This document shows, one piece after another, positions 17,161-27,107 of a stretch of DNA of 64,000 bases. Both the position numbers and the translations under genes were made by a program. Within the stretch, counting starts at the first letter, position 1, and each line of letters begins with the position of its first letter. A model generated the notes under the pieces. It was not told the DNA's origin. It made no database searches and was given only the letters and a program-made list of their open reading frames with translations. Origin of the DNA: a virus (lineage: Duplodnaviria > Caudoviricetes); the IMG/VR virus record IMGVR_UViG_3300032216_001476, positions 1 to 64,000 of that record; one strand, written 5' to 3'.

Positions 17161-17445
17161 TTAATTATTTAAGTCTAAATCAGCTGTAAAAGTTCTAGCT
17201 GATCCAGTCAAAGTATTTGAAGTAGTAAATGTGATTGGATTACCATTGATGGTTCCATAAGGTTGAACAGGTACTGTCCATGGTTTTGTAGTTCCAGTTG
17301 ACCAACCTGGTGTTGAAATAACTGTTGACGCTACCTCTTCTTCTTTTAAAATAAGTAAAGCTTCCTCTAAAGTAAGAGAGCTTTCTTTTATTAAACGAGA
17401 TAGTATGGCTACTTTTTGAGCATGTAAGGTTACTTCTGCTTCCAT
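17161..17445 (-). CDS. Hypothetical protein
   Basis: Coupled to terminase stop; TLEEALLIL motif then low-complexity tail. Confidence 0.6.
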   Translation of the reverse strand: MEAEVTLHAQKVAILSRLIKESSLTLEEALLILKEEEVASTVISTPGWSTGTTKPWTVPVQPYGTINGNPITFTTSNTLTGSARTFTADLDLNN

Positions 17446-19649
17446 TATCTTATATTTTTAAAGGGATTTCTAGGGGGTTGCATAGAATTAGGACCTCTCT
17501 TAGAGCTACCCATATGCCTAAAGGGGCTATAATTTAATTTACTAAATTTTTGGGAGTTATCCAAGTTTTGTTCTGTAACTTCTACACGTTTAGACATTCC
17601 CCTGTTAGATTGTTGCACTTTTGCAAAAGCTACAAGTGCACAAAAAGATACGAGTCTATCCACGTTTACACCATCTTGGTAAGCTTGCATCTCTTTTAAA
17701 AGCATAGGATCTGGTATACGTTCTACACCATATATAGTTTTAACAATTTCACCATCAGGCTTTGTTTCATGATCTAGTTCTTCTTTTAAGAATTGTATAC
17801 CATAAGACAATATATTACCCTTAAACAACGTTCCTACGTTCTTCCACCCATATTCTTGAAACACATTTCTATTAGCACCAATATCTTTTAAGAACAAAAT
17901 CATGTCTTTAGGTACTAAATAACGTTGCTTCTTCTTAGATATCATATGTTGTATAAATAAAGCAACATTGTTCTCCACTATAGTCCAGGCGTTATACCAC
18001 TCTATGAGTAGTTCTAGACGTTCATGAGTTTTGTTTATATCATCAAACCTACCACACCAAGAAGCTACTATCTTATCTCTTTCTATGTGATTCTCCACCT
18101 TACCATTACCTTGATCTTTTATAACCTCAACAGGATTTTTATAAATATAAATAGCACATAGTGAATCTGAAGTAGTTGTTTTTCCTTCTCCAACAGGATC
18201 GACAGAACCATAATACATACCAAATGGTGGATCTTTTGCAGGTCTTTCATATATACACAACACTCCCTCTTTATCTTCTGTTTTTTTAGATATGGGAAAC
18301 TCCATTATAGGAATTTTCCTACTAGGTTTGTCTACAATTTTACCTTCTGCATTTCTAGATAGTTCTAAATACTCAACAGGATATTCTTTATCAGAAATAC
18401 GAGAGAGTTGTTTAGCAATTAAATGAGGAGGGAATACACTCACTTTTCTAGTAGCAAAAGCTTCTTCTATATTTCTAGGTTGCTGTGATACAGTGAGTTG
18501 ATAGGCATCAGGTGCCATATCTTTCTTCATACGTACAAACTCTATTTCTAGAGCTTCTAGTGCTTTTTGTACAAGAGAGTTACCATATTGATCTATATAT
18601 GGTGGCATACTCCATTGTTCAGGTATAAACAACCCTGTTATACCAGGAGTACCATCTGTATCTAAAAGATTAGTATTTACACCATAGAAACCATTTTCTT
18701 CTGGATGTAATATATACTCTTTCATAGGTTCACATTGGTCTAGGTCACCTACAGAACCTGCTGCTATAAATTGACCTGTAATAATATGACCTGATTTAAG
18801 TGCAGGTTTCATAAATCCATAGGTGTCATTCATCTTAGGTGCAATACCTGCTTCTTCATGGAAGAAATACGTAACAGGACCACCTACACCATTTGTAGGA
18901 TCTTTCTCAAATGAATATGAGTTAATAGTGGACTTGTTTCCTTTATAAGTGTCCCTATTGTTTATTCTCACTTTAATTTGTTGTTGCCAAGCACCCACTT
19001 TCTCTGGTTCTGCAGGACGATACCATGCAGTGTGTTCATTAAGAAAGTTCTTATACTCATTGAGAAACTTCCAAGAACCCTTTTCATTGATGTAGTCTTT
19101 AAGACTAGCACCTATTTTTAGTACAGAACCATTCTCAAACCAATACTGATTTATGAGTTTTGCCATATGAAAATAAGAACTAGCTATCTGACGTTTCTTA
19201 AGTATTATAGCATGTTTCCAATGAAGTTCTGCTAATATCTCATATAATGCCATATGATATTGAGCATCTCTCACCTTTGCAAAGTCAAATCTCTTTTCTT
19301 CTTTATCGTAAATAGGGAGAAAGTTCAACCACATATAGTAGTCTCTGGTTATATACCATTGCTTATCACCATTTTTTACTAATATACCTGCTCTACATTT
19401 TAACTTTTGATCATCCCAATAAGTAATAAAATCTTTAGTTTTTGTAGGAGCAGCACAATAATAACCCTGTTTTTGAAACTTTCTTCCTTCAGCATTAAAC
19501 ACTAAAGAGTTTTCATCAAACTCATATTCTCCAGGTTCTTTAAATAAGGGTAATAAAAAATCCCGAAACTCTTCACGAGTGTTAAAACTCGTGAGAGTCC
19601 AGGAAGAATTCTCATAAGTGGGTACGGTTATAAACGGGCTGCTATTCAT
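17445..19649 (-). CDS. terL: Terminase large subunit
   Basis: LKKRQIASS Walker A variant, FFHEEAG Walker B, RNase H-like GSVDP..GK...SDS, IVENN, NVDR. Confidence 0.92.
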   Translation of the reverse strand: MNSSPFITVPTYENSSWTLTSFNTREEFRDFLLPLFKEPGEYEFDENSLVFNAEGRKFQKQGYYCAAPTKTKDFITYWDDQKLKCRAGILVKNGDKQWYITRDYYMWLNFLPIYDKEEKRFDFAKVRDAQYHMALYEILAELHWKHAIILKKRQIASSYFHMAKLINQYWFENGSVLKIGASLKDYINEKGSWKFLNEYKNFLNEHTAWYRPAEPEKVGAWQQQIKVRINNRDTYKGNKSTINSYSFEKDPTNGVGGPVTYFFHEEAGIAPKMNDTYGFMKPALKSGHIITGQFIAAGSVGDLDQCEPMKEYILHPEENGFYGVNTNLLDTDGTPGITGLFIPEQWSMPPYIDQYGNSLVQKALEALEIEFVRMKKDMAPDAYQLTVSQQPRNIEEAFATRKVSVFPPHLIAKQLSRISDKEYPVEYLELSRNAEGKIVDKPSRKIPIMEFPISKKTEDKEGVLCIYERPAKDPPFGMYYGSVDPVGEGKTTTSDSLCAIYIYKNPVEVIKDQGNGKVENHIERDKIVASWCGRFDDINKTHERLELLIEWYNAWTIVENNVALFIQHMISKKKQRYLVPKDMILFLKDIGANRNVFQEYGWKNVGTLFKGNILSYGIQFLKEELDHETKPDGEIVKTIYGVERIPDPMLLKEMQAYQDGVNVDRLVSFCALVAFAKVQQSNRGMSKRVEVTEQNLDNSQKFSKLNYSPFRHMGSSKRGPNSMQPPRNPFKNIR

Positions 19650-20055
19650 TTCCTAGTAGGTATTCTATTTTCTCTGGGTCACCATTTGTTTTTTGGATAA
19701 TCTCTACAAGAACACTTACTCGTGGACTTTTAAATACTCCTTGAATTTGGTTATCACTCCAATACTGTAGATACTTATCTCTAGGAATAGCATTCCAAAG
19801 AGTAGTGTGAGGGTTATAGTGAAAAACCCAATTGTGCAAATGATTTTCACTACCAACTTTGTAAACAGGTTCACTATCCTGATAAGTTTCATTTGTCATA
19901 TTATTTTTTTTATTTGATTTGTATGGACAATGTCTACAGTTATTACGACAACATCTACCTTTTTCCAAGTGGTATTGTTCTGTAAAAACCCACATACCAT
20001 TCTCTATATAATAATGTACATTCTCTATAAGTTTTAACGATTTCCTTTTATCCAT
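19642..20055 (-). CDS. DUF5522-like Cys-rich domain fused to a second small domain
   Basis: YYIENG.WVFTEQYHL.KG.CC.NNCRHCPY; internal Met with A-rich leader. Confidence 0.65.
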   Translation of the reverse strand: MDKRKSLKLIENVHYYIENGMWVFTEQYHLEKGRCCRNNCRHCPYKSNKKNNMTNETYQDSEPVYKVGSENHLHNWVFHYNPHTTLWNAIPRDKYLQYWSDNQIQGVFKSPRVSVLVEIIQKTNGDPEKIEYLLGNE

Positions 20056-20111
20056 TGATAAATAGAATTAATTATATTTTGTACAAGATTATCGTGAGAC
20101 ATTTTTTAAAA

Positions 20112-20627
20112 TTAGTAAGGTCCATCTACAATTTGGTGATTTTTTTCAAACTCGTCCCATATAGCTTTGATATTACCATCTGCTTTTAAAACACTATCAT
20201 ATTTGGTTTTTGTAACCCATTTATCGTTGTTGTTTTTAATACCTACAGCATCAGATATAGCAAAATGAATACAAAATCCAACTAGTAATAAGTTTACAGC
20301 ACCTTGTAAAATTGCATTCTCTTCGTACCATTTTGGTATATAGTTTAAATGCAGAAACAAACCTATCATTAAAAACACAAAGATTGTTCCTAAACAAATA
20401 GACAAACCTATTTTGCTTTTATGGTCTTTTCTCCTAGTAGCGATATCTAGTGATTGACCAAACGTAGGAGCAATAGAATAATTCACAACATCTTCTTGTA
20501 CACGGGTACCATTTTTTAGTACCCAGTCACCTTTAACTGTTTCTTGTTTATGTATAATGTTGTCTGGTGCTTTAGAACAACTTAATACAAGGATGAAAAA
20601 CATCCATAACATAATTACCTTTTTCAT
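20112..20627 (-). CDS. Membrane lipoprotein
   Basis: Signal peptide ending LVLSC plus two TM helices. Confidence 0.6.
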   Translation of the reverse strand: MKKVIMLWMFFILVLSCSKAPDNIIHKQETVKGDWVLKNGTRVQEDVVNYSIAPTFGQSLDIATRRKDHKSKIGLSICLGTIFVFLMIGLFLHLNYIPKWYEENAILQGAVNLLLVGFCIHFAISDAVGIKNNNDKWVTKTKYDSVLKADGNIKAIWDEFEKNHQIVDGPY

Positions 20628-20657
20628 TTTTTTTTGGTTTTTAAATTAAAAAATTAG

Positions 20658-20761
20658 CTGTAAGGAGAGGACTCGAACCTCTAAACTCTCCGTGGTTCAA
20701 AAACCGCTAAGAGAGCACCACTGAGACAAAGTAGCGTGTTTGCCAGTTTCACCACCTTACA
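20658..20761 (-). tRNA. Atypical tRNA, anticodon GUC (Asp), 35-nt variable arm
   Basis: TGTAAGG/CCTTACA acceptor stem, Leu/Ser-type D arm, CTACT-TTGTCTC-AGTGG anticodon arm, AGAGG-TTCGAGT-CCTCT T arm. Confidence 0.75.
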
Positions 20762-20768
20762 GTTTTGT

Positions 20769-21119
20769 TTATTTAAATGGTACTGCTAGATTTAAGTCTA
20801 GTAGTTCCTGGTTGATATGAAACTCAAAGTTAGGTCCATAATATATTTCAGATAAAGCTCTACCAAACGCATCAAGAGATCTACTCTTAATAAGTATGTT
20901 AGAACCTAATACTAGTTTGTCCATTACATATTGTTTAGCTTCTAGTGCTTTAAGTCTAACGTCTACATCTTTAGATTTTAGTTCAGGTGTATTTACACCA
21001 TAAAATCTACAATGTGATGTCCACTTAATTTTAAAACCTAAATCTATTGTAACATCAATAGTGTCTCCATCAACTATTTTGTTAACCACTGCTTCGTAAG
21101 TATATAAATTATTGATCAT
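20769..21119 (-). CDS. Thermonuclease (SNase) family
   Basis: IVDGDTID...RFYGVNTPE...DAFGRAL. Confidence 0.9.
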   Translation of the reverse strand: MINNLYTYEAVVNKIVDGDTIDVTIDLGFKIKWTSHCRFYGVNTPELKSKDVDVRLKALEAKQYVMDKLVLGSNILIKSRSLDAFGRALSEIYYGPNFEFHINQELLDLNLAVPFK

Positions 21120-21135
21120 AGTATAACTTTTATAA

Positions 21136-21342
21136 TTAACCTGTTGCTGCTTTTACTGCCCACATAGCTGCTTCTTCATAAGTTGTTTGTGCAAACTCTT
21201 TTAATCTGTGAACTTCAGCATCTGGCTTATTAATTAAATCTATTAGATTAATTAATTCTGCAGTTTTTTGTTTAATCTGATCCACAACAGAATCATTATT
21301 TGGATTAAACGTGGTTCTTACTCTTTGTTCTCCTTTAGTCAT
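21136..21342 (-). CDS. Acb2/Tad1-like helical hairpin protein (putative nucleotide sponge)
   Basis: C-terminal AQTTYEEAAMWAVKAAT resembles the Tad1/Acb2 helix. Confidence 0.55.
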   Translation of the reverse strand: MTKGEQRVRTTFNPNNDSVVDQIKQKTAELINLIDLINKPDAEVHRLKEFAQTTYEEAAMWAVKAATG

Positions 21343-21688
21343 GTAGATGGGTTTTTAAACTATGAATAATTTGCTTAAACAAATAGTCTTTAGACTTTTG
21401 TTCTGTAGGTAGTTCTTCGTATGGAAGAAAACAAGGATGTTCTTTTGTGTTAATATTTTTTATAGGACCATATTTCCACCCCTCTTCTTTTTTTTGTTTT
21501 AACCATGAGTCATGGCTATGAGAAGGAGTAGCATTAGGATTTTCTAAATGAAACTTAACACCATTAATTGCAGAACTTTTCTGCCAATCAGGTGCTTCTT
21601 CCCATGAAGATTGTGAGTTATCTCCAATACTTGTGCAAAATGCAGCGTTTACTTCGTGTGCTACTTTAGCAATTTGTTCTAGTGTCAT
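21335..21688 (-). CDS. RyR-domain protein
   Basis: HDSWLKQKKEEGWKYGP...KEHPCFLPYEELPTEQKSKD; likely start MTLEQ at 21688, avoiding overlap with upstream gene. Confidence 0.85.
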   Translation of the reverse strand: MTLEQIAKVAHEVNAAFCTSIGDNSQSSWEEAPDWQKSSAINGVKFHLENPNATPSHSHDSWLKQKKEEGWKYGPIKNINTKEHPCFLPYEELPTEQKSKDYLFKQIIHSLKTHLHD

Positions 21689-21698
21689 ATATGTTGAT

Positions 21699-22211
21699 TT
21701 ATTGATCGTATGCCAAATTCTGACCCCCTCTAACAGTGGATTTTTGTTCTTCTTCAAGATCTCTAAGTGTACCCTTAAAAGATTGACGTATTGCTTCAAA
21801 TTTTGCAGCTGCGTTTACAAGAGCTGTAATATTACCATCTCTACCATGTTCTATTTCTGTGGTTTCCATATATTTAGCGAGTCTGTCTAACATACTTTTA
21901 ATACCAGCGTATGCTCTATATGTAGGTGTTTCGTAGAGTTTTTTACAAAATGTAATAGCATCTACTATTACATCATCATCTGTAGAAAAATCTGCATCCA
22001 CTTCTTTAAGAATTAGTTCTTCTTTCTCCACTTCAGGTACATCAAAAAATGGATTTAAGTCTGGATTGGGACAAGTCATATAAAATAAATAAGCAAACAC
22101 TTTAGAAGACTCATCTCCATAATTGTCTATCACTGCTTTTAATGCTGATAATGTGTAACAATGTTCTGATGGAACCACTTTACCATTATGTATATCAAAT
22201 AATCTTATCAT
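21699..22211 (-). CDS. Conserved crAss-like protein (possible terminase small subunit)
   Basis: Helical, C-terminal VRGG motif, upstream of terL. Confidence 0.5.
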   Translation of the reverse strand: MIRLFDIHNGKVVPSEHCYTLSALKAVIDNYGDESSKVFAYLFYMTCPNPDLNPFFDVPEVEKEELILKEVDADFSTDDDVIVDAITFCKKLYETPTYRAYAGIKSMLDRLAKYMETTEIEHGRDGNITALVNAAAKFEAIRQSFKGTLRDLEEEQKSTVRGGQNLAYDQ

Positions 22212-22431
22212 CTTTTTTCCAATTATTAGGGATGTCTACATCCCAATCGTTACCATTCATAGGATTATCATAAATTCTAATATCATCTGAGTAGTAGTGT
22301 TTTATATGTCCACCTTTTAATCTAACTACCCATGTAGTATTTACATTAATCCCATAATCTATTAATAAATAAGCTTCCCCTTCACCGTGTGGTGTATGTA
22401 CAGGAAGTGGAGACGCAAACTCATGTATCAT
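22195..22431 (-). CDS. Hypothetical protein
   Basis: TPHGEGEAYLLIDYG...WVV conserved small phage family. Confidence 0.65.
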   Translation of the reverse strand: MIHEFASPLPVHTPHGEGEAYLLIDYGINVNTTWVVRLKGGHIKHYYSDDIRIYDNPMNGNDWDVDIPNNWKKDDKII

Positions 22432-23264
22432 TAATGCACCTTTAGTTTTTTACGATTGTCTTCTAACCAATGCAATAGAGATATAACTTCTGGTTTTAAA
22501 TAACTCAATGTATAAGGAACTACATCCTTTACAATTGGGTCACCATTACTATCTAAAGCAGTGATTGGGTTACCAAACTTATCTTCTCCTACAGTTTCAA
22601 AATGAATATGATGAATTGTAAGTTGTCCTGGTTTTAGTTTTGGGTTGTGCTTTAAGATCATATACATATACAAACTTAATTGTAATGTATAATGTGTAAG
22701 ATTACAATCATCTAGGTGACTTAAAGGAGGAAGCATTTTATTTATACTACCATCCCAGTTTTTAAAACCCTCTGTCTTAATCTCTTTGTTAGTTTTATAG
22801 TCTGTTATGTGCACCTCACCATTTATCACCTCTACTAAGTCTGATTGACCACATATACCAGATGATTTCAAATAAACAAGATGTTCAGGATAGACACCAT
22901 CTTCTAGTTTTTGATTAGGAGAGTATTTAATTCCATCAATTTCTATGGGTTTCACTATACTCACTTCTTTGTTTTTCCTACAAATAGTGTTTAGTTCACA
23001 ATATCCCTTCTCTTGTTTAGTATGATACCAACTACCTAGTGTTGTTGCTCTATTTGCTTCGTTTTTCCATGCGTTTTTTATATCCTCCACCTTCATCCCA
23101 TACCACTTACTCTTTTTGTTTTTTGAACTCTTCTCTGCTATTATATCTGCTTCAAATGGTTTTTTAAAATTACCTATAAAACTAGTTACGCTTATCCATT
23201 CAGTGAGATCTTCTTGGTTAAGACTTACATACTTATGGTTATCTGGCATAAACTTTAATATCAT
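22431..23264 (-). CDS. PD-(D/E)XK exonuclease
   Basis: CGQSDLV...ITDYKTNK...YTLQLSLY; start at ATGA overlap 23264. Confidence 0.85.
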   Translation of the reverse strand: MILKFMPDNHKYVSLNQEDLTEWISVTSFIGNFKKPFEADIIAEKSSKNKKSKWYGMKVEDIKNAWKNEANRATTLGSWYHTKQEKGYCELNTICRKNKEVSIVKPIEIDGIKYSPNQKLEDGVYPEHLVYLKSSGICGQSDLVEVINGEVHITDYKTNKEIKTEGFKNWDGSINKMLPPLSHLDDCNLTHYTLQLSLYMYMILKHNPKLKPGQLTIHHIHFETVGEDKFGNPITALDSNGDPIVKDVVPYTLSYLKPEVISLLHWLEDNRKKLKVH

Positions 23265-23590
23265 ATACCTAATTTCTGATTTAATACTCTTTCTTCCTCT
23301 ACAGTTAGTTCTGCTAACCATTTATCTTTAGGACAAGAAGAACTAAGACTTCGTGTTTTGAATTCCAAAGAACATCCACAACCCCCTTTGTCTTGATTAC
23401 AACAAGGACCTGTACCCTTCACCATACAACCATCTCCTATTTCATCATAGAGAGTACAAGTTTTACAAATAGTCATCCTTAAATTGGCAATATGTTCAAC
23501 ATCATCTCTTTTAAAAATGTTATTCTTAATACCCTCAAGTATTGCCCCCTTGTTCTTCCATATCTGTATTATGTTTTCTTTTAGACTCAT
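23261..23590 (-). CDS. Cys-rich zinc-binding protein
   Basis: R..IC..C...CC...GCGC.L..K.....CP..KW. Confidence 0.7.
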   Translation of the reverse strand: MSLKENIIQIWKNKGAILEGIKNNIFKRDDVEHIANLRMTICKTCTLYDEIGDGCMVKGTGPCCNQDKGGCGCSLEFKTRSLSSSCPKDKWLAELTVEEERVLNQKLGI

Positions 23591-23957
23591 TGGTTATCTT
23601 TTTATGTAGGGATATAAAATCTTTCTTTTGTTTCTCTTCTTCTAGTAGTAACTTCAAAGATGATAACATTTCAATTGATTCTTTTATCTTATACCTATCG
23701 TTTAAAACTTCTAACCCTTTCTGATTATTGTTCTCAATTGCTTTATTTAGACTCTCTATTCTCTTCTCTAGTTTCCAGTATTTCAAATTGAAATCACCTA
23801 GGTTTTCTATATGTATTTTAGAATGTGTAAGAGATTTGAGGTTTTTTCTTATTTCTTCCCAATAAAAAAACACTACATCTTTTACTAGTTCTTCAGGAAA
23901 ACCTAAATCACTCGCTATCTGTGGTATCAACTCCTTTGCCTTCTTTGGACGCAACAC
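23535..23957 (-). CDS. HU/IHF-like DNA-binding protein
   Basis: KELIPQIASDLGFPEELVKDVV...IHIENLGDF. Confidence 0.6.
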   Translation of the reverse strand: MLRPKKAKELIPQIASDLGFPEELVKDVVFFYWEEIRKNLKSLTHSKIHIENLGDFNLKYWKLEKRIESLNKAIENNNQKGLEVLNDRYKIKESIEMLSSLKLLLEEEKQKKDFISLHKKITNESKRKHNTDMEEQGGNT

Positions 23958-24306
23958 TTAGAAATTTAAAATCAAGTAATATATTGCCATTTGAATGTAT
24001 ATTCATCTGAGGATGCACTTTGATTTTTTTCTTATTCTTACCTTCCTTCACAACAAGATTTTTCTTAGCTGCCTTTGTTAAACAGTTTCTAACACTTTGA
24101 GGTGAGGAAAATATCTTTTTGAAAAACACTTTATCGCAAAAAGAAGTGAGTTCTTGTTCTCCTTCTAATGCTAAGAAAGTGAGACAATCAAGATCTGATT
24201 CACTTATTTGCACCTTATATATATAACAATGTGTTAGAATCTGAAACTTGACAATATCCCAAGTCGTCATCATGGTTCTTTTGTCCACTTGGTTTACTAA
24301 TGCCAT
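23908..24306 (-). CDS. Winged-helix-like hypothetical protein
   Basis: SPQSVRNCLTKAAKKNLVVK; co-oriented in operon. Confidence 0.5.
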   Translation of the reverse strand: MALVNQVDKRTMMTTWDIVKFQILTHCYIYKVQISESDLDCLTFLALEGEQELTSFCDKVFFKKIFSSPQSVRNCLTKAAKKNLVVKEGKNKKKIKVHPQMNIHSNGNILLDFKFLSVASKEGKGVDTTDSE

Positions 24307-24324
24307 CTTAAATTATTTAGTTTT

Positions 24325-24720
24325 TTATTTCTTTTTAAGAGAACGCTGCTTTGTTTCTTCATTGGTCTTAGACGGGGAAAAAACAGGTTTTTGTACATCG
24401 TCTTCTTTAGGGATGATAACTTCATCTCCCACTTTTAACCCTTGTTCAGCAAGTTCTGGGTTAGACCTCATATCTTCTTCTGTAATAGTGTGAGGTATAC
24501 CACCCTCATAATACTGAGCGTTATCTTCACTAGTATTTTGTTTAGAATTAGTCAATTGTCCCATATAAGCAATTGACTTAAGTTCTTCAAACCTAGCCTT
24601 TGCAAGAGAAGTGTTCAACTCTTGTAGTTTTAGTTGGAACTCTTTCACCTCAATTTGCTCTTTAAGAAAAGCAATCACTTCTTCTTTACTTGGTACTTTT
24701 TCTTCTGGTTGTTGGTTCAT
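24325..24720 (-). CDS. Hypothetical protein
   Basis: Coiled coil plus HTITEED...NPEL...GLKVGD motif. Confidence 0.65.
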   Translation of the reverse strand: MNQQPEEKVPSKEEVIAFLKEQIEVKEFQLKLQELNTSLAKARFEELKSIAYMGQLTNSKQNTSEDNAQYYEGGIPHTITEEDMRSNPELAEQGLKVGDEVIIPKEDDVQKPVFSPSKTNEETKQRSLKKK

Positions 24721-24732
24721 TTTGTTAAGTTT

Positions 24733-25014
24733 TTAGAGTTGTTGTTTTTTTTCTATTTTGTTTACAAACTCCTTGTATGTTTCTACAAAGTCTTCAAAGT
24801 TTGTATCTATTATATAGGTGTCACCATAGTCTGTAAAAATAGTGGTGCAGTTGTAGGTGAGTTCTTCATAATCATCACTGGTTAGTTTCATAGCTGCCAC
24901 TATATCCATATTAAATGCAAAAGGCATCCACTTACCAAGATCTTTATCCAAACCCATTAGTTCTGATTGTTCAGGATCAATACTATGACAATGGATGTTA
25001 CATTCATGTACCAT
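24733..25014 (-). CDS. Hypothetical protein
   Basis: Co-oriented ORF with tight spacing. Confidence 0.65.
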   Translation of the reverse strand: MVHECNIHCHSIDPEQSELMGLDKDLGKWMPFAFNMDIVAAMKLTSDDYEELTYNCTTIFTDYGDTYIIDTNFEDFVETYKEFVNKIEKKQQL

Positions 25015-25017
25015 TTT

Positions 25018-25230
25018 TTATTTGTTTTTGGGTGATTTATGATAATCGTTGTACGAAATGTACTTACTTGTGTTTTGAGACTTGACCATTTGTTGTGCTA
25101 ACAACCTCTCAGCAATACCATCACTAGCGTATACTACGGGGATGTTTATAGGATTACCATATTTATCCTCGTTTTGGATGTAGTGACTATCACTGTTTTC
25201 TTCTGCTTTTACTATTTTCTTGTTGGTCAT
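25018..25230 (-). CDS. Hypothetical protein
   Basis: Directly downstream of a late promoter motif. Confidence 0.55.
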   Translation of the reverse strand: MTNKKIVKAEENSDSHYIQNEDKYGNPINIPVVYASDGIAERLLAQQMVKSQNTSKYISYNDYHKSPKNK

Positions 25231-25245
25231 AATAACATTACATTA

Positions 25246-25280
25246 TAATATACTAATAAAGTTTAAACCCTACAAATTTA
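25246..25280 (-). promoter_or_regulatory. Putative late promoter with extended element
   Basis: Minus strand TAAATTTGTAGGGTTTAAACTTTATTAGTATATTA. Confidence 0.55.
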
Positions 25281-25393
25281 TAATAATATTATAAGATGTA
25301 CTGTTGTTATTTACACACATACAAAAAACACACCTATAGTATACAAATAGTACACTCTATATAGATGTGTTACAATAAAATGATTGTGAATAT

Positions 25394-26047
25394 TTAGATG
25401 TTATACTCGTAATCTAGTATAGCTCCCACTAAGTCAGACCTGTGGTTTTCTTTGAGTTTGATATATTCTATACCCTTGAGCTTCTTAGACATTTCTATAA
25501 CGTATTTAAGACCATTAATACCATTATCCCTGATATCGGTTTGTTCTAGGTCTCCATTTATTATAATCTTACCTGTCTTACCAAGTCTAGTAAGAATAGC
25601 TAACATCTGTGCTTTGGTGAGGTTTTGTGCTTCCTCCACTATAAGTATATCATCTATAGTTTTACCCCTAATAAACTGCACAGGATATGCTTGTACTTTT
25701 TGATCTTGTATAAGTTGTGTTATCTTCACCTTATCATAGCACTTGGTGAGGTTTTCCATAAAAGCCTCTAAATAAGGATTAAACTTCTCTGTTAATCCCC
25801 CAGGAAGAAACCCCAAAGAATTACCCACCTCTATAGTGGCTCTAGTAACATATATAACATCTATCTGTTTCTTAAAGAGAAAATCTAACGCAGCTTGTGC
25901 AGACACTAAAGACTTCCCACACCCAGCTCTACCAGTAATAATAACTATTTGATTTTCCACTATAAGTTTCTTAGCTAACTTCTGCTCATCATTAAGTTGC
26001 AATTGATACTTAATATCAGTTTTACGTTCTCTATTTGGTTCCTTCAT
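25394..26047 (-). CDS. phoH: PhoH-like ATPase
   Basis: GRAGCGKS, LGFLPG, RGKT, EEAQN, LTRLG, GDLEQTD, HRS; likely start MKEPNR at 26047. Confidence 0.95.
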   Translation of the reverse strand: MKEPNRERKTDIKYQLQLNDEQKLAKKLIVENQIVIITGRAGCGKSLVSAQAALDFLFKKQIDVIYVTRATIEVGNSLGFLPGGLTEKFNPYLEAFMENLTKCYDKVKITQLIQDQKVQAYPVQFIRGKTIDDILIVEEAQNLTKAQMLAILTRLGKTGKIIINGDLEQTDIRDNGINGLKYVIEMSKKLKGIEYIKLKENHRSDLVGAILDYEYNI

Positions 26048-26067
26048 ACTACTAATATACAAATAAT

Positions 26068-26220
26068 CCCCCTAAAAAACAACCCCCCTATTTTACCTTT
26101 ATATAAACATACCCCCCATATAAAATACCCCCCGTATATAAAATACAGTCTATGTAGTAGGTTGTGATGGGGTATTCAATTTATAACCCCTACTCAGTCT
26201 TGGCGTAGAGTGTACCCCCG
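26068..26220. repeat. Poly-C tract repeats at the strand-divergence point
   Basis: C5/C6 runs at 26068, 26083, 26112, 26128, 26215; ATATAAAATACCCCCC-like unit repeated. Confidence 0.75.
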
Positions 26221-26259
26221 TACATTCTATTGCAGTTTAATTAACTTAAAAATTAAAAA

Positions 26260-26544
26260 ATGAAACTTGAATTGAAAGTATCGAAGTGTACCTTAAACAA
26301 CAAGAAAAATGGATACGTACTTTCCCTCCGTACAGAGGGAAAGAAAGTTGAGATTTTTCCTGGAATGTTTAAGGAAACACCAGGTCAATTGTTCTTAATG
26401 TCTTTCAAACATCCTATTCCCGAAGGAACGCCCACATCAATTGATTTGGATTTATTCCAAATCAAGGAAGACAAGAGTATTGTGAAGGATAGAATAACTG
26501 GCGAGGACATTACCTTGACAAACAAGTGGCTATGGCTCAAGTAG
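26260..26544 (+). CDS. First early gene, hypothetical (beta-rich)
   Basis: A-rich leader, followed by a terminator. Confidence 0.7.
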   Translation: MKLELKVSKCTLNNKKNGYVLSLRTEGKKVEIFPGMFKETPGQLFLMSFKHPIPEGTPTSIDLDLFQIKEDKSIVKDRITGEDITLTNKWLWLK

Positions 26545-26555
26545 AGCCACTTGTT

Positions 26556-26592
26556 AATACCACACTGCAGAAATGTAGTGTGGTATTTTTTT
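26556..26592 (+). terminator. Intrinsic terminator
   Basis: AATACCACACTGCA-GAAA-TGTAGTGTGGTATT plus T tract. Confidence 0.8.
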
Positions 26593-26599
26593 AGCTAAT

Positions 26600-26630
26600 T
26601 GACTATGTCAGTGCAAGTGACTATGTCAGT
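26600..26630. repeat. Tandem palindromic sites TGACTATGTCAGT x2
   Basis: Exact 13-mers at 26600 and 26618, each containing TGAC-N3-GTCA. Confidence 0.75.
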
Positions 26631-26769
26631 ATAAAAAGTTTTAAATTTTTAATTAAACAAACGTTATAACTAATTGATAATCAGTTAGTTATGTGTTAAT
26701 TTGTGTGTGCTAGGTATTCTCAACATCCTATCATCAATTCACAAAAAACACCTAATCTCACTAAAAATA

Positions 26770-26787
26770 GTGGATTAGATAGCTATA
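26770..26787. promoter_or_regulatory. 18-bp operator-like motif, copy 2
   Basis: GTGGATTAGATAGCTATA. Confidence 0.55.
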
Positions 26788-26973
26788 TAGTATTAATGCG
26801 TCATAACCATCTTCTCAAGGGATGGCAGATGTATATACTCTTGAGTAAGTCCTAAACTTAATTGTTACCAGTAAGCCTTACGTGGAATTATCGCCACAGA
26901 TGTAAGCATGGTGTTTAGGGTTCTAGTGTTTAATCACAAAAGAGTATATACAACTGAACGCAGAGAGATACTA
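26788..26973 (+). ncRNA. Twister ribozyme (type P1) with large P5 insertion
   Basis: P1 TAGTAT/ATACTA, UAA, P2 TGCG/CGCA, P4 CCATC/GATGG, loop (T)TCTCAAGG, 3' GA-GAG pseudoknot partner. Confidence 0.75.
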
Positions 26974-27107
26974 GTGTATACATAATACAACCAAGCCGTG
27001 AAAATCTATCAGTCCTGACCGTCTATGTACGAGGAACCAGAAACAAGTTTTCTGCTATTAGGAATTATGGAGCTGATATCTCCCTGGTTAATGTATTGTG
27101 TATACAC
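26974..27107 (+). ncRNA. Candidate multi-stem ncRNA
   Basis: 16-bp closing helix GTGTATACATAATACA/TGTATTGTGTATACAC with internal hairpins. Confidence 0.55.

Follow-up and report, generated by a model that had tools for sequence, protein, structure and literature searches.

A stand-alone RyR-domain gene overlapping a minimal Acb2-family gene: candidate antagonists of two nucleotide immune signals at a variable locus of an uncultured crAss-like phage

Introduction

Why does a phage carry a stand-alone RyR-domain gene that overlaps the gene of a very small helical hairpin, and do the two products act as separate sponges for immune signals or as one device? This question is raised by positions 21,136 to 21,688 of a 64,000-nucleotide (nt) stretch of viral DNA from IMG/VR record IMGVR_UViG_3300032216_001476 (positions 1 to 64,000), and the whole of this stretch is called the window below. 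A preliminary description of the window had proposed that the hairpin protein, of 68 amino acids (aa), is a sponge related to Acb2 or Tad1, and that the RyR domain may bind a second nucleotide signal.

Our analysis indicates that the two genes are likely to be independent antagonists, an anti-Thoeris gene (RyR) and a gene against cyclic-oligonucleotide-based antiphage signalling systems (CBASS; the minimal Acb2-type hairpin, or mini-Acb2), which lie in a hot spot between a conserved gene for a 170-aa protein and the terminase large subunit (TerL) gene of a crAss-like phage. This reading rests on family assignments, conserved residues, folds, self-association as predicted by modelling, and neighbourhood patterns, while we infer its statements on the ligands, on sponge versus enzyme, on a hexamer and on the time of expression.

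The features in question are as follows.

21136..21342, minus strand: gene for a 68-aa minimal Acb2-family protein (helical hairpin; candidate cyclic-oligonucleotide sponge), from PF24729, residues and model
21335..21688, minus strand: gene for a 117-aa stand-alone RyR (Repeat12-like) protein of the RyDEP / RyR Tad family (candidate sponge or glycosidase for 2'/3' cyclic ADP-ribose, 2'/3'cADPR), from PF02026, residues and fold
21335..21342, minus strand: 8-nt overlap ATGACTAA, with the RyR stop codon within the start of the hairpin gene, read from the sequence

Two overlapping genes

The junction of the two genes on the minus strand reads AAA ACC CAT CTA CAT GAC TAA in the RyR frame and ATG ACT AAA GGA in the hairpin frame, where the TAA stop codon of the RyR gene ends at 21335 and the ATG of the hairpin gene lies at 21342. 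The listing of open reading frames (ORFs) gives the C-terminus of the hairpin protein as ...AQTTYEEAAMWAVKAATG. At its full length, the RyR ORF extends over 21335..21799 on the minus strand from a TTG start and would overlap its 170-aa neighbour by about 100 nt. Starting from the ATG at 21688, it encodes 117 aa and begins 10 nt past the stop codon of the 170-aa gene. We prefer the ATG start because of this 10-nt spacing and because a related locus, L002 (loci collected for comparison are labelled L), carries a RyR ORF of the identical length of 117 aa.

Since both proteins belong to large families that are present in clusters, in IMG/VR and in cultured phages, both genes are real and neither is a chance ORF. 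The coupled genes of the preliminary description, a 68-aa hairpin and a stand-alone RyR domain with an 8-nt overlap, were borne out by the ORFs and by reading of the sequence. Judging from the junction, translational coupling of the two genes is possible. The same 8-nt overlap occurs in L002, whereas the genes overlap by 1 nt in L083 and are separated by 2 nt in L010.

The 117-aa RyR protein

The 117-aa protein matched the RyR family PF02026 with 45.3 bits (45.5 bits in a repeat search; cut-off 27.4). By phmmer against Protein Data Bank (PDB) sequences, it matched RyR repeats (E 2e-21) and 35TM (E 7e-9), which is RyDEP of mycobacteriophage DyoEdafos (PMC13232231). Its AlphaFold2 (AF2) model, with a mean predicted local distance difference test (pLDDT) score of 94.5, consists of four helices (residues 3-20, 34-49, 55-68 and 95-114), and the top Foldseek matches of this model were all RyR Repeat12 or B. 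thetaiotaomicron RyR-like structures with a probability of 1.00. Relatives of the protein are found in 296 of 50,697 records of cultured phages (0.6%).

Other phage RyR-domain proteins are nanomolar sponges for 2'/3'cADPR (PMC13232231). The protein H7 binds 2'/3'cADPR with a nanomolar dissociation constant (Kd), does not cleave it and overcomes type I Thoeris (PMC13232231), and gp68 of Pectobacterium phage CB1, named RyR Tad, is a 3'cADPR sponge with a Kd of 43 nM that binds through H129/W132, K147/H154 and K170/D171 (10.64898/2026.06.04.730250). The RyR protein of the window is 55% identical over 111 residues to a protein of Pectobacterium phage Nepra whose sequence is that of H7, and it keeps all six RyR Tad binding residues as H59, W62, K77, H84, K100 and D101. 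No variation occurs at H59, W62 and K100 across 22 RyR relatives; K77, H84 and D101 are each present in at least 90%. By analogy with H7, the suggested binding of a second nucleotide signal by the RyR domain would agree with what two 2026 preprints describe, namely sequestration or cleavage of the Thoeris signals 2'/3'cADPR by proteins of this family (PMC13232231; 10.64898/2026.06.04.730250).

Alternatively, the RyR protein could be a glycosidase like DyoEdafos RyDEP, which would cut the ribose-ribose bond of 2'/3'cADPR to give ADP-ribose. BLASTP alignment with DyoEdafos gp78 (L081:4664-5080) places H59, W62, H84 and D101 in exact register with RyDEP H75, W78, H100 and D117, and H59 and D101 are the equivalents of the RyDEP catalytic dyad. 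However, the identity to RyDEP is 31%, compared with 55% to the non-catalytic H7. The eight homologues tested besides RyDEP keep these residues, and none of them cleaved the signals (PMC13232231). Also, no NARP1-type NAD-salvage genes were seen beside the RyR gene. Considering that the closest tested relative, H7, is a sponge and that eight other homologues are non-cleaving, we rate a sponge as more likely than an enzyme by analogy, and a glycosidase seems rather unlikely to us.

Two RyR copies from other phages differ at pocket positions. The RyR protein of Pectobacterium phage phiA41 (L082:2782-3330) has an Arg (SHESRL) at the position of RyR Tad W132, where the W132A exchange abolishes RyR Tad activity (10.64898/2026.06.04.730250); a loss of activity in this copy and a sequencing error at this base are both possible. 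The RyR gene at L020:5100-5417, which lies 560 nt from a hairpin gene, encodes Ser and Gly at the H84 and D101 positions, so that its pocket is degenerate.

The 68-aa Acb2-family protein

The 68-aa protein matched PF24729 (Acb2_Tad1_hairpin) with 43.6 bits against a cut-off of 27 (E 3.4e-11), and with 42.6 bits in a six-frame search of the genome. The family of this hairpin comprises 803 representative clusters at E<=1e-3, mostly of 70-90 aa, and IMG/VR contains 242 relatives. In alignment A1, which comprises 59 members, the conserved motif is G-E-x-R-V-R-x-x-F-N-P-S...V-D-x-I-K...R-L..L-A-Q-T-x-Y-E-E-A-A-M-W-A-V-K-A-A-T. The profile of this alignment matched T4 Vs.4 (7UQ2; E 0.019) and Acb2_43 (9PTQ; E 0.31) among PDB sequences, and hhalign against Vs.4 gave a probability of 81%; phmmer of the single protein against PDB sequences returned a chance match only.

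In its AF2 model (pLDDT 97.4), the protein forms a short N-terminal helix (residues 3-7) and two antiparallel helices (18-35 and 42-67) without strands or an extra globular domain, as in an Acb2 protomer. An exhaustive VIA search placed Vs.4 (7uq2_A) at rank 7 of 48,161 chains (Z 6.7, root-mean-square deviation 2.1, 56 residues), and no listed chain exceeded its identity of 27%. The Z range of 6-8 is common to many unrelated helical chains and does not discriminate by itself. With Foldseek against the PDB, the model matched nothing at E<=0.001, and Tad1 (7uav_B) stood at rank 49 with E 7.3. Because a fold search cannot discriminate simple hairpins, the assignment to the Acb2 family rests on sequence and not on fold.

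The preliminary description had called the protein Acb2/Tad1-like on account of a helix A.T..EEA.MW. The Acb2 family and the shared helix were retained, and the helix motif is visible in Tad1 sequences, but the Tad1 architecture was not. Tad1 carries a beta-sheet domain on the hairpin and has about 100-150 aa (98-148 aa in Table S2 of Hadary et al. 2025; bioRxiv 10.1101/2025.08.24.671296), whereas the window protein has 68 aa and a strandless model. Since the Tad1 beta domain is absent from it, the protein as modelled is of the Acb2 type and not of the Tad1 type. One member of the hairpin family, P0006 (192 aa), has a YopX domain (PF09643, at threshold) ahead of an Acb2-type hairpin, which would be explained by a genuine fusion or by a run-through in gene calling.

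Modelling of four copies of the 68-aa protein gave an interface score (ipSAE) of 0.78, compared with 0.01 for the best control; among solved homo-pairs, 20 of 30 attained this mark, against 1 of 23 single chains. Contacts agreed to at least 94% between the runs, with a partner pLDDT of 70 or more. Residues 19-68 form the confident interface, that of an antiparallel dimer, and additional contacts lie around residues 49-57. The modelling thus predicts self-association and supports no particular stoichiometry, and the result may partly be memory, as Acb2 hexamers have been solved.

Alignment with T4 Vs.4 and JBD67 Acb2 matched F12, K24, R46 and T53 of the window protein with Y11, K26, R67 and T74 of PaMx33 Acb2. 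In Acb2, Y11 stacks on the ligand and K26 forms a salt bridge in the dinucleotide pocket, and R67 and T74 belong to the trinucleotide pocket (PMC10312549). R46 and T53, which align with an Arg and a Thr of JBD67 Acb2 and with D61 and T68 of the T4 protein, were equated with R67 and T74 because the two T4 residues are equivalent to these (PMC10312549). The trinucleotide-pocket residues are variable among true Acb2 proteins. In the subfamily, F12, K24 and R46 are each conserved in 57 of 59 members and T53 in 49 of 59. The protein is smaller than classical Acb2 proteins (68 aa versus 88-108 aa) because the connection between its two helices is much shorter.

The 4,204 Acb2 homologues in Table S1 of Hadary et al. 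2025 include this FNPS...AAMWAVKAAT subfamily, and two of its members were tested (bioRxiv 10.1101/2025.08.24.671296). One of them, Acb2_42, was recovered as L109:7422-7670 and is 51% identical to the 68-aa protein; it was positive by plaque assay against an E. albertii CBASS whose signal is 3'3' cyclic GMP-AMP (3'3'-cGAMP) (Hadary et al. 2025). By analogy with Acb2_42, the 68-aa protein is a sponge candidate. The sponge idea of the preliminary description was strengthened as a candidate by the match to the Acb2 family (PF24729 above cut-off and the Vs.4 alignment), by the four retained residues and by the identity to CBASS-active Acb2_42.

Would both genes rather act against Thoeris? In that case 3'cADPR would be the ligand of the mini-Acb2, as it is for Acb2_43 and nine further homologues. 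In favour of this, inhibition of type I Thoeris is known for ten Acb2 homologues; Acb2_12, likewise a carrier of the FNPS motif, scored against both type I Thoeris and CBASS (Hadary et al. 2025); and the A1 profile matched Acb2_43 weakly. However, the closest tested relative, Acb2_42 (51% identical), acted against the cGAMP CBASS but against none of the Thoeris types I, II and IV, the di- and trinucleotide pocket residues of Acb2 are kept, and the AF2 model is without the beta strands that Acb2_43 uses for 3'cADPR. We consider a double anti-Thoeris module quite improbable.

We attach just as small a chance to the idea that the 68-aa protein is not a sponge but a small helical protein with another role, such as head assembly or regulation. 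Helical hairpins are structurally unspecific, as the searches above illustrate; Acb2_2 inhibited nothing tested; and several family members lie between portal and MuF genes or near capsid genes. These points are met by a PF24729 score well above the cut-off, by four functional residues conserved in register and across the subfamily, by the CBASS-positive result of Acb2_42, and by known acb2 genes that also lie in head modules (JBD67).

The preferred reading, an independent RyR antagonist of Thoeris and a mini-Acb2 antagonist of CBASS, has to be weighed with several points that speak against it. Position 12 is Phe where Acb2 has Tyr, the helices are far shorter than in PaMx33, JBD67 or T4 Acb2, and the profile similarity to solved Acb2 chains (Vs.4, E 0.019; Acb2_43, E 0.31) is weak. 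The four-copy model does not establish a hexamer. Acb2_42 was negative not only on the three Thoeris types (I, II and IV) but also on a cyclic UMP-AMP (cUA) CBASS and on Pycsar, and Acb2_2, of the same subfamily, inhibited 0 of 7 systems (Hadary et al. 2025). Because Acb2_2 was inactive and Acb2_42 was active on the cGAMP CBASS, the ligand range differs among subfamily members. As for the RyR protein, RyDEP-type catalytic residues also occur in non-catalytic homologues, and a sequence comparison cannot tell a sponge from an enzyme.

Neighbourhood of the two genes

The two genes co-occur in further loci, in line with the pair proposed at first. A RyR gene lies within 6 kb in 6 of 80 hairpin-anchored IMG/VR loci; it directly adjoins the hairpin gene in L002, L010 and L080 and is 560 nt off in L020. 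In the reverse direction, a hairpin gene adjoins the RyR gene in 2 of 19 RyR-anchored loci (L083 and L085). In the remaining 74 of 80 and 17 of 19 loci the partner is missing, and most copies of each gene stand alone.

When the 80 hairpin loci were merged into 54 groups by shared flanking genes, RyR reached 4 of the 54 groups as a neighbour within 1.5 kb of the hairpin gene, and every other family at most 2. By our own rough estimate against the 0.6% of cultured-phage records, this greatly exceeds chance expectation, even were RyR genes ten times as frequent in environmental phages. Phages that carry such a pair range over 25-62% GC, and either gene can come first. Compared with the window genes, L083 and L085 have 71%-identical RyR proteins and hairpins of 39-43% identity, whereas L010 and L020 have hairpins of 66-69% identity and RyR proteins of 32-47%. 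Since the divergence of the partners is discordant, these comparisons point to independent juxtapositions and not to the transfer of one unit. The small ORFs that flank the pair in L010, L020, L080, L083 and L085 matched no Pfam family.

Two loci whose TerL is 87% identical to that of the window show how the region varies. In L001, the 170-aa gene, the hairpin gene and a gene for a staphylococcal nuclease-like (SNase-like) protein are present, and RyR is missing exactly at the junction. In L002, the 170-aa gene, RyR and the hairpin gene are present, and the SNase gene, which the window shares with L001 (57% identity), is absent. The 170-aa homologues (66% identical) stand directly upstream of RyR in L002 and directly upstream of the hairpin gene in L001. 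Because L001 is without RyR and L002 without SNase, the locus is a variable accessory hot spot that exchanges at least two genes. A more distant case is a 25%-GC phage (L085:3611-8751) with the hairpin, RyR, TerL and portal genes in a row. Its TerL is only 23% identical to that of the window, yet its RyR protein is 71% identical, which indicates that the RyR gene moved between very different phages and again stands before the terminase.

An obligate hetero-complex or two-component system in which neither protein works alone is highly improbable: RyR is indeed the most recurrent neighbour of this Acb2 subfamily, and the genes overlap or nearly touch in the window, L002, L083 and L010, but most loci carry one gene without the other, the near relative L001 keeps the hairpin without RyR, one contig holds both genes about 30 kb apart (L065, L086), no RyR-hairpin fusion was found among 20 longer hairpin-family members, and each family works alone in published assays. 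Accordingly, we regard the two antagonists as independent of one another, with a tendency to gather at shared loci, which fits published anti-signalling hot spots.

Genome context and host

The parent record has 95,136 bp, a CheckV completeness of 77% and a GC content of 31%. Around the pair, the following features were found.

20769..21119, minus strand: SNase-like endonuclease gene, variable member of the hot spot (PF00565 at threshold; phrog_452 endonuclease, E 1e-25)
21699..22211, minus strand: conserved 170-aa gene, upstream border of the hot spot (66% identical homologues in L001 and L002)
17445..19649, minus strand: crAss-like TerL, first gene of the packaging/structural block downstream of the pair (tblastn)
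19642-20055, minus strand: DUF5522 protein with a Cys-rich N-terminus (66 bits)

From position 1 to about 26.06 kb, every gene lies on the minus strand. The gene order is PD-(D/E)XK exonuclease, 78-aa gene, 170-aa gene, RyR, hairpin, SNase-like nuclease, membrane protein, DUF5522 protein and TerL, so that the pair stands three genes upstream of TerL on the same strand. By tblastn, the TerL is about 25% identical to terminases of crAss-like phages of Bacteroides, Flavobacterium, Cellulophaga and Azobacteroides. Among cultured phages with the hairpin subfamily, 146 of 150 records are Flavobacterium phages. Considering these crAss-like TerL relatives and the Flavobacterium-phage carriers of the hairpin, the host of this uncultured crAss-like phage probably belongs to the Bacteroidota. 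By blastn, the region shares only short patches with cultured phages.

The preliminary description had read the position of the pair as a late-operon placement that fits defences triggered by capsid or terminase expression. Apart from the window and L085, the hairpin gene stands between portal and MuF-like head protein genes in L029 and L030, and JBD67 has acb2 between major head and adaptor genes. Among the large neighbours in the 54 hairpin groups, about 15 of 102 are terminase, portal, capsid or MuF genes, and many others encode replication proteins. Late-module placement of the hairpin gene is thus recurrent, but not general. No convincing minus-strand terminator was predicted from 26 kb to TerL in a scan of 17-27 kb, which is a weak test. 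A sigma-70 promoter scan of the same 17-27 kb gave fewer promoter-like sites than shuffled sequences, Bacteroidota promoters being outside the coverage of the tool.

Tad2 (PF11195) is absent from the 95-kb record. The product of the 170-aa gene matched no Pfam or PHROG family, and its Atlas matches were viral hypothetical clusters only. The DUF5522 gene overlaps the TerL start by 8 nt, at a place where a small terminase subunit might be expected, and homologues of about 38% identity occupy the same place in L001 and L002. ARAGORN found no tRNA and no tmRNA in 19000-27000; another first-reader note had taken the gap at 20658-20761 for a class-II-bodied tRNA-Asp.

Discussion

We propose that the RyR protein would form a dimer, which in the RyDEP / RyR Tad family is built through helices alpha1 and alpha4, with a Repeat12-like pocket (H59, W62, K77, H84, K100, D101) that would tightly bind the Thoeris signals 3'cADPR and 2'cADPR, and that a host ThsA-type effector would thereby stay inactive. 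The 68-aa hairpins would pack in antiparallel fashion, probably into a hexamer like that of Acb2. Cyclic dinucleotides such as 3'3'-cGAMP would fit the pockets with F12 and K24, cyclic trinucleotides may fit those with R46 and T53, and capture of these signals by the mini-Acb2 would prevent CBASS effectors from acting. Translation of the two genes is probably coupled through their 8-nt overlap, so that both proteins would be made together.

A bolder view is that the RyR-Acb2 adjacency, assembled repeatedly and independently and often with coupled translation, reflects functional synergy and not a shared insertion hot spot. The pair could be a two-signal module, co-expressed in fixed stoichiometry, for hosts with Thoeris and CBASS or with decoy-guard systems such as Panoptes; or the RyR and Acb2 proteins could assemble physically; or the mini-Acb2 could bind another signal, such as cyclic triadenylate (cA3) or cyclic AMP-AMP-GMP (cAAG), or the cyclic oligoadenylates of type III CRISPR. 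We hold this view to be clearly unlikely and offer it as a conjecture.

Both genes belong to families that were first described between 2023 and 2026, and for each of the two a relative of more than 50% identity has been tested. Our study adds a crAss-like phage, probably of a Bacteroidota host, to the carriers of both Acb2-type and RyR-type signal antagonists, which implies that nucleotide-signalling defences (CBASS, Thoeris) press on this lineage. The two candidates are small (68 and 117 aa) and easily expressed. RyR is the single most recurrent neighbour of the mini-Acb2 subfamily, and the pairs appear to have arisen independently; the papers on Acb2 and RyR sponges that we consulted do not describe this recurrent adjacency. 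If it holds true database-wide, a position next to an Acb2 or RyR gene could serve as a search rule for anti-defence genes in uncultured phages.

In comparison with known systems, the 68-aa protein resembles Acb2 (PaMx33/JBD67, T4 Vs.4, Acb2_42) in the PF24729 hairpin with its C-terminal A.T..EEAAMWA.KA helix, in the aromatic F12 and in K24 at the dinucleotide pocket, in R46 and T53 at the trinucleotide pocket, and in its predicted self-association. It differs from Acb2 in its length (68 aa versus 88-108 aa), in the shorter connection between the helices and in Phe for the stacking Tyr, and from classical Acb2 also in the N-terminal G-x-x-R-V-R-x-x-F-N-P motif that is typical of its subfamily. 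The C-terminal helix motif of the hairpin, A.T..EE..MW, by which PF24729 is defined, is common to it and Tad1, but the 68-aa protein is a hairpin only, whereas Tad1 (about 100-150 aa) has a beta-sheet domain.

The RyR protein is similar to RyR Tad and H7 in 55% identity over the whole Repeat12-like domain, in the six residues that bind glycocyclic ADP-ribose (gcADPR) and in the four-helix fold. Unlike gp68 and H7, it is a stand-alone protein of 117 aa without their N-terminal domain of about 65 residues, and unlike the gene of CB1 gp68, which lies beside a primase gene in an N4-like hot spot, its gene lies in a crAss-like phage beside an acb2-like gene. With the RyDEP glycosidase (DyoEdafos gp78, 35TM) it shares the Pfam family and the register of H75, W78, H100 and D117, but the identity is 31%, the NARP1 NAD-salvage context is missing and its closer relatives are non-catalytic sponges. 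As for the locus itself, sponge genes cluster at a variable site and are gained or lost between close relatives, as in the anti-signalling hot spots of N4-like phages (10.64898/2026.06.04.730250). Unlike those hot spots, this one belongs to a crAss-like lineage, lies upstream of TerL, and holds a combination of RyR and mini-Acb2 that recurs in unrelated phages.

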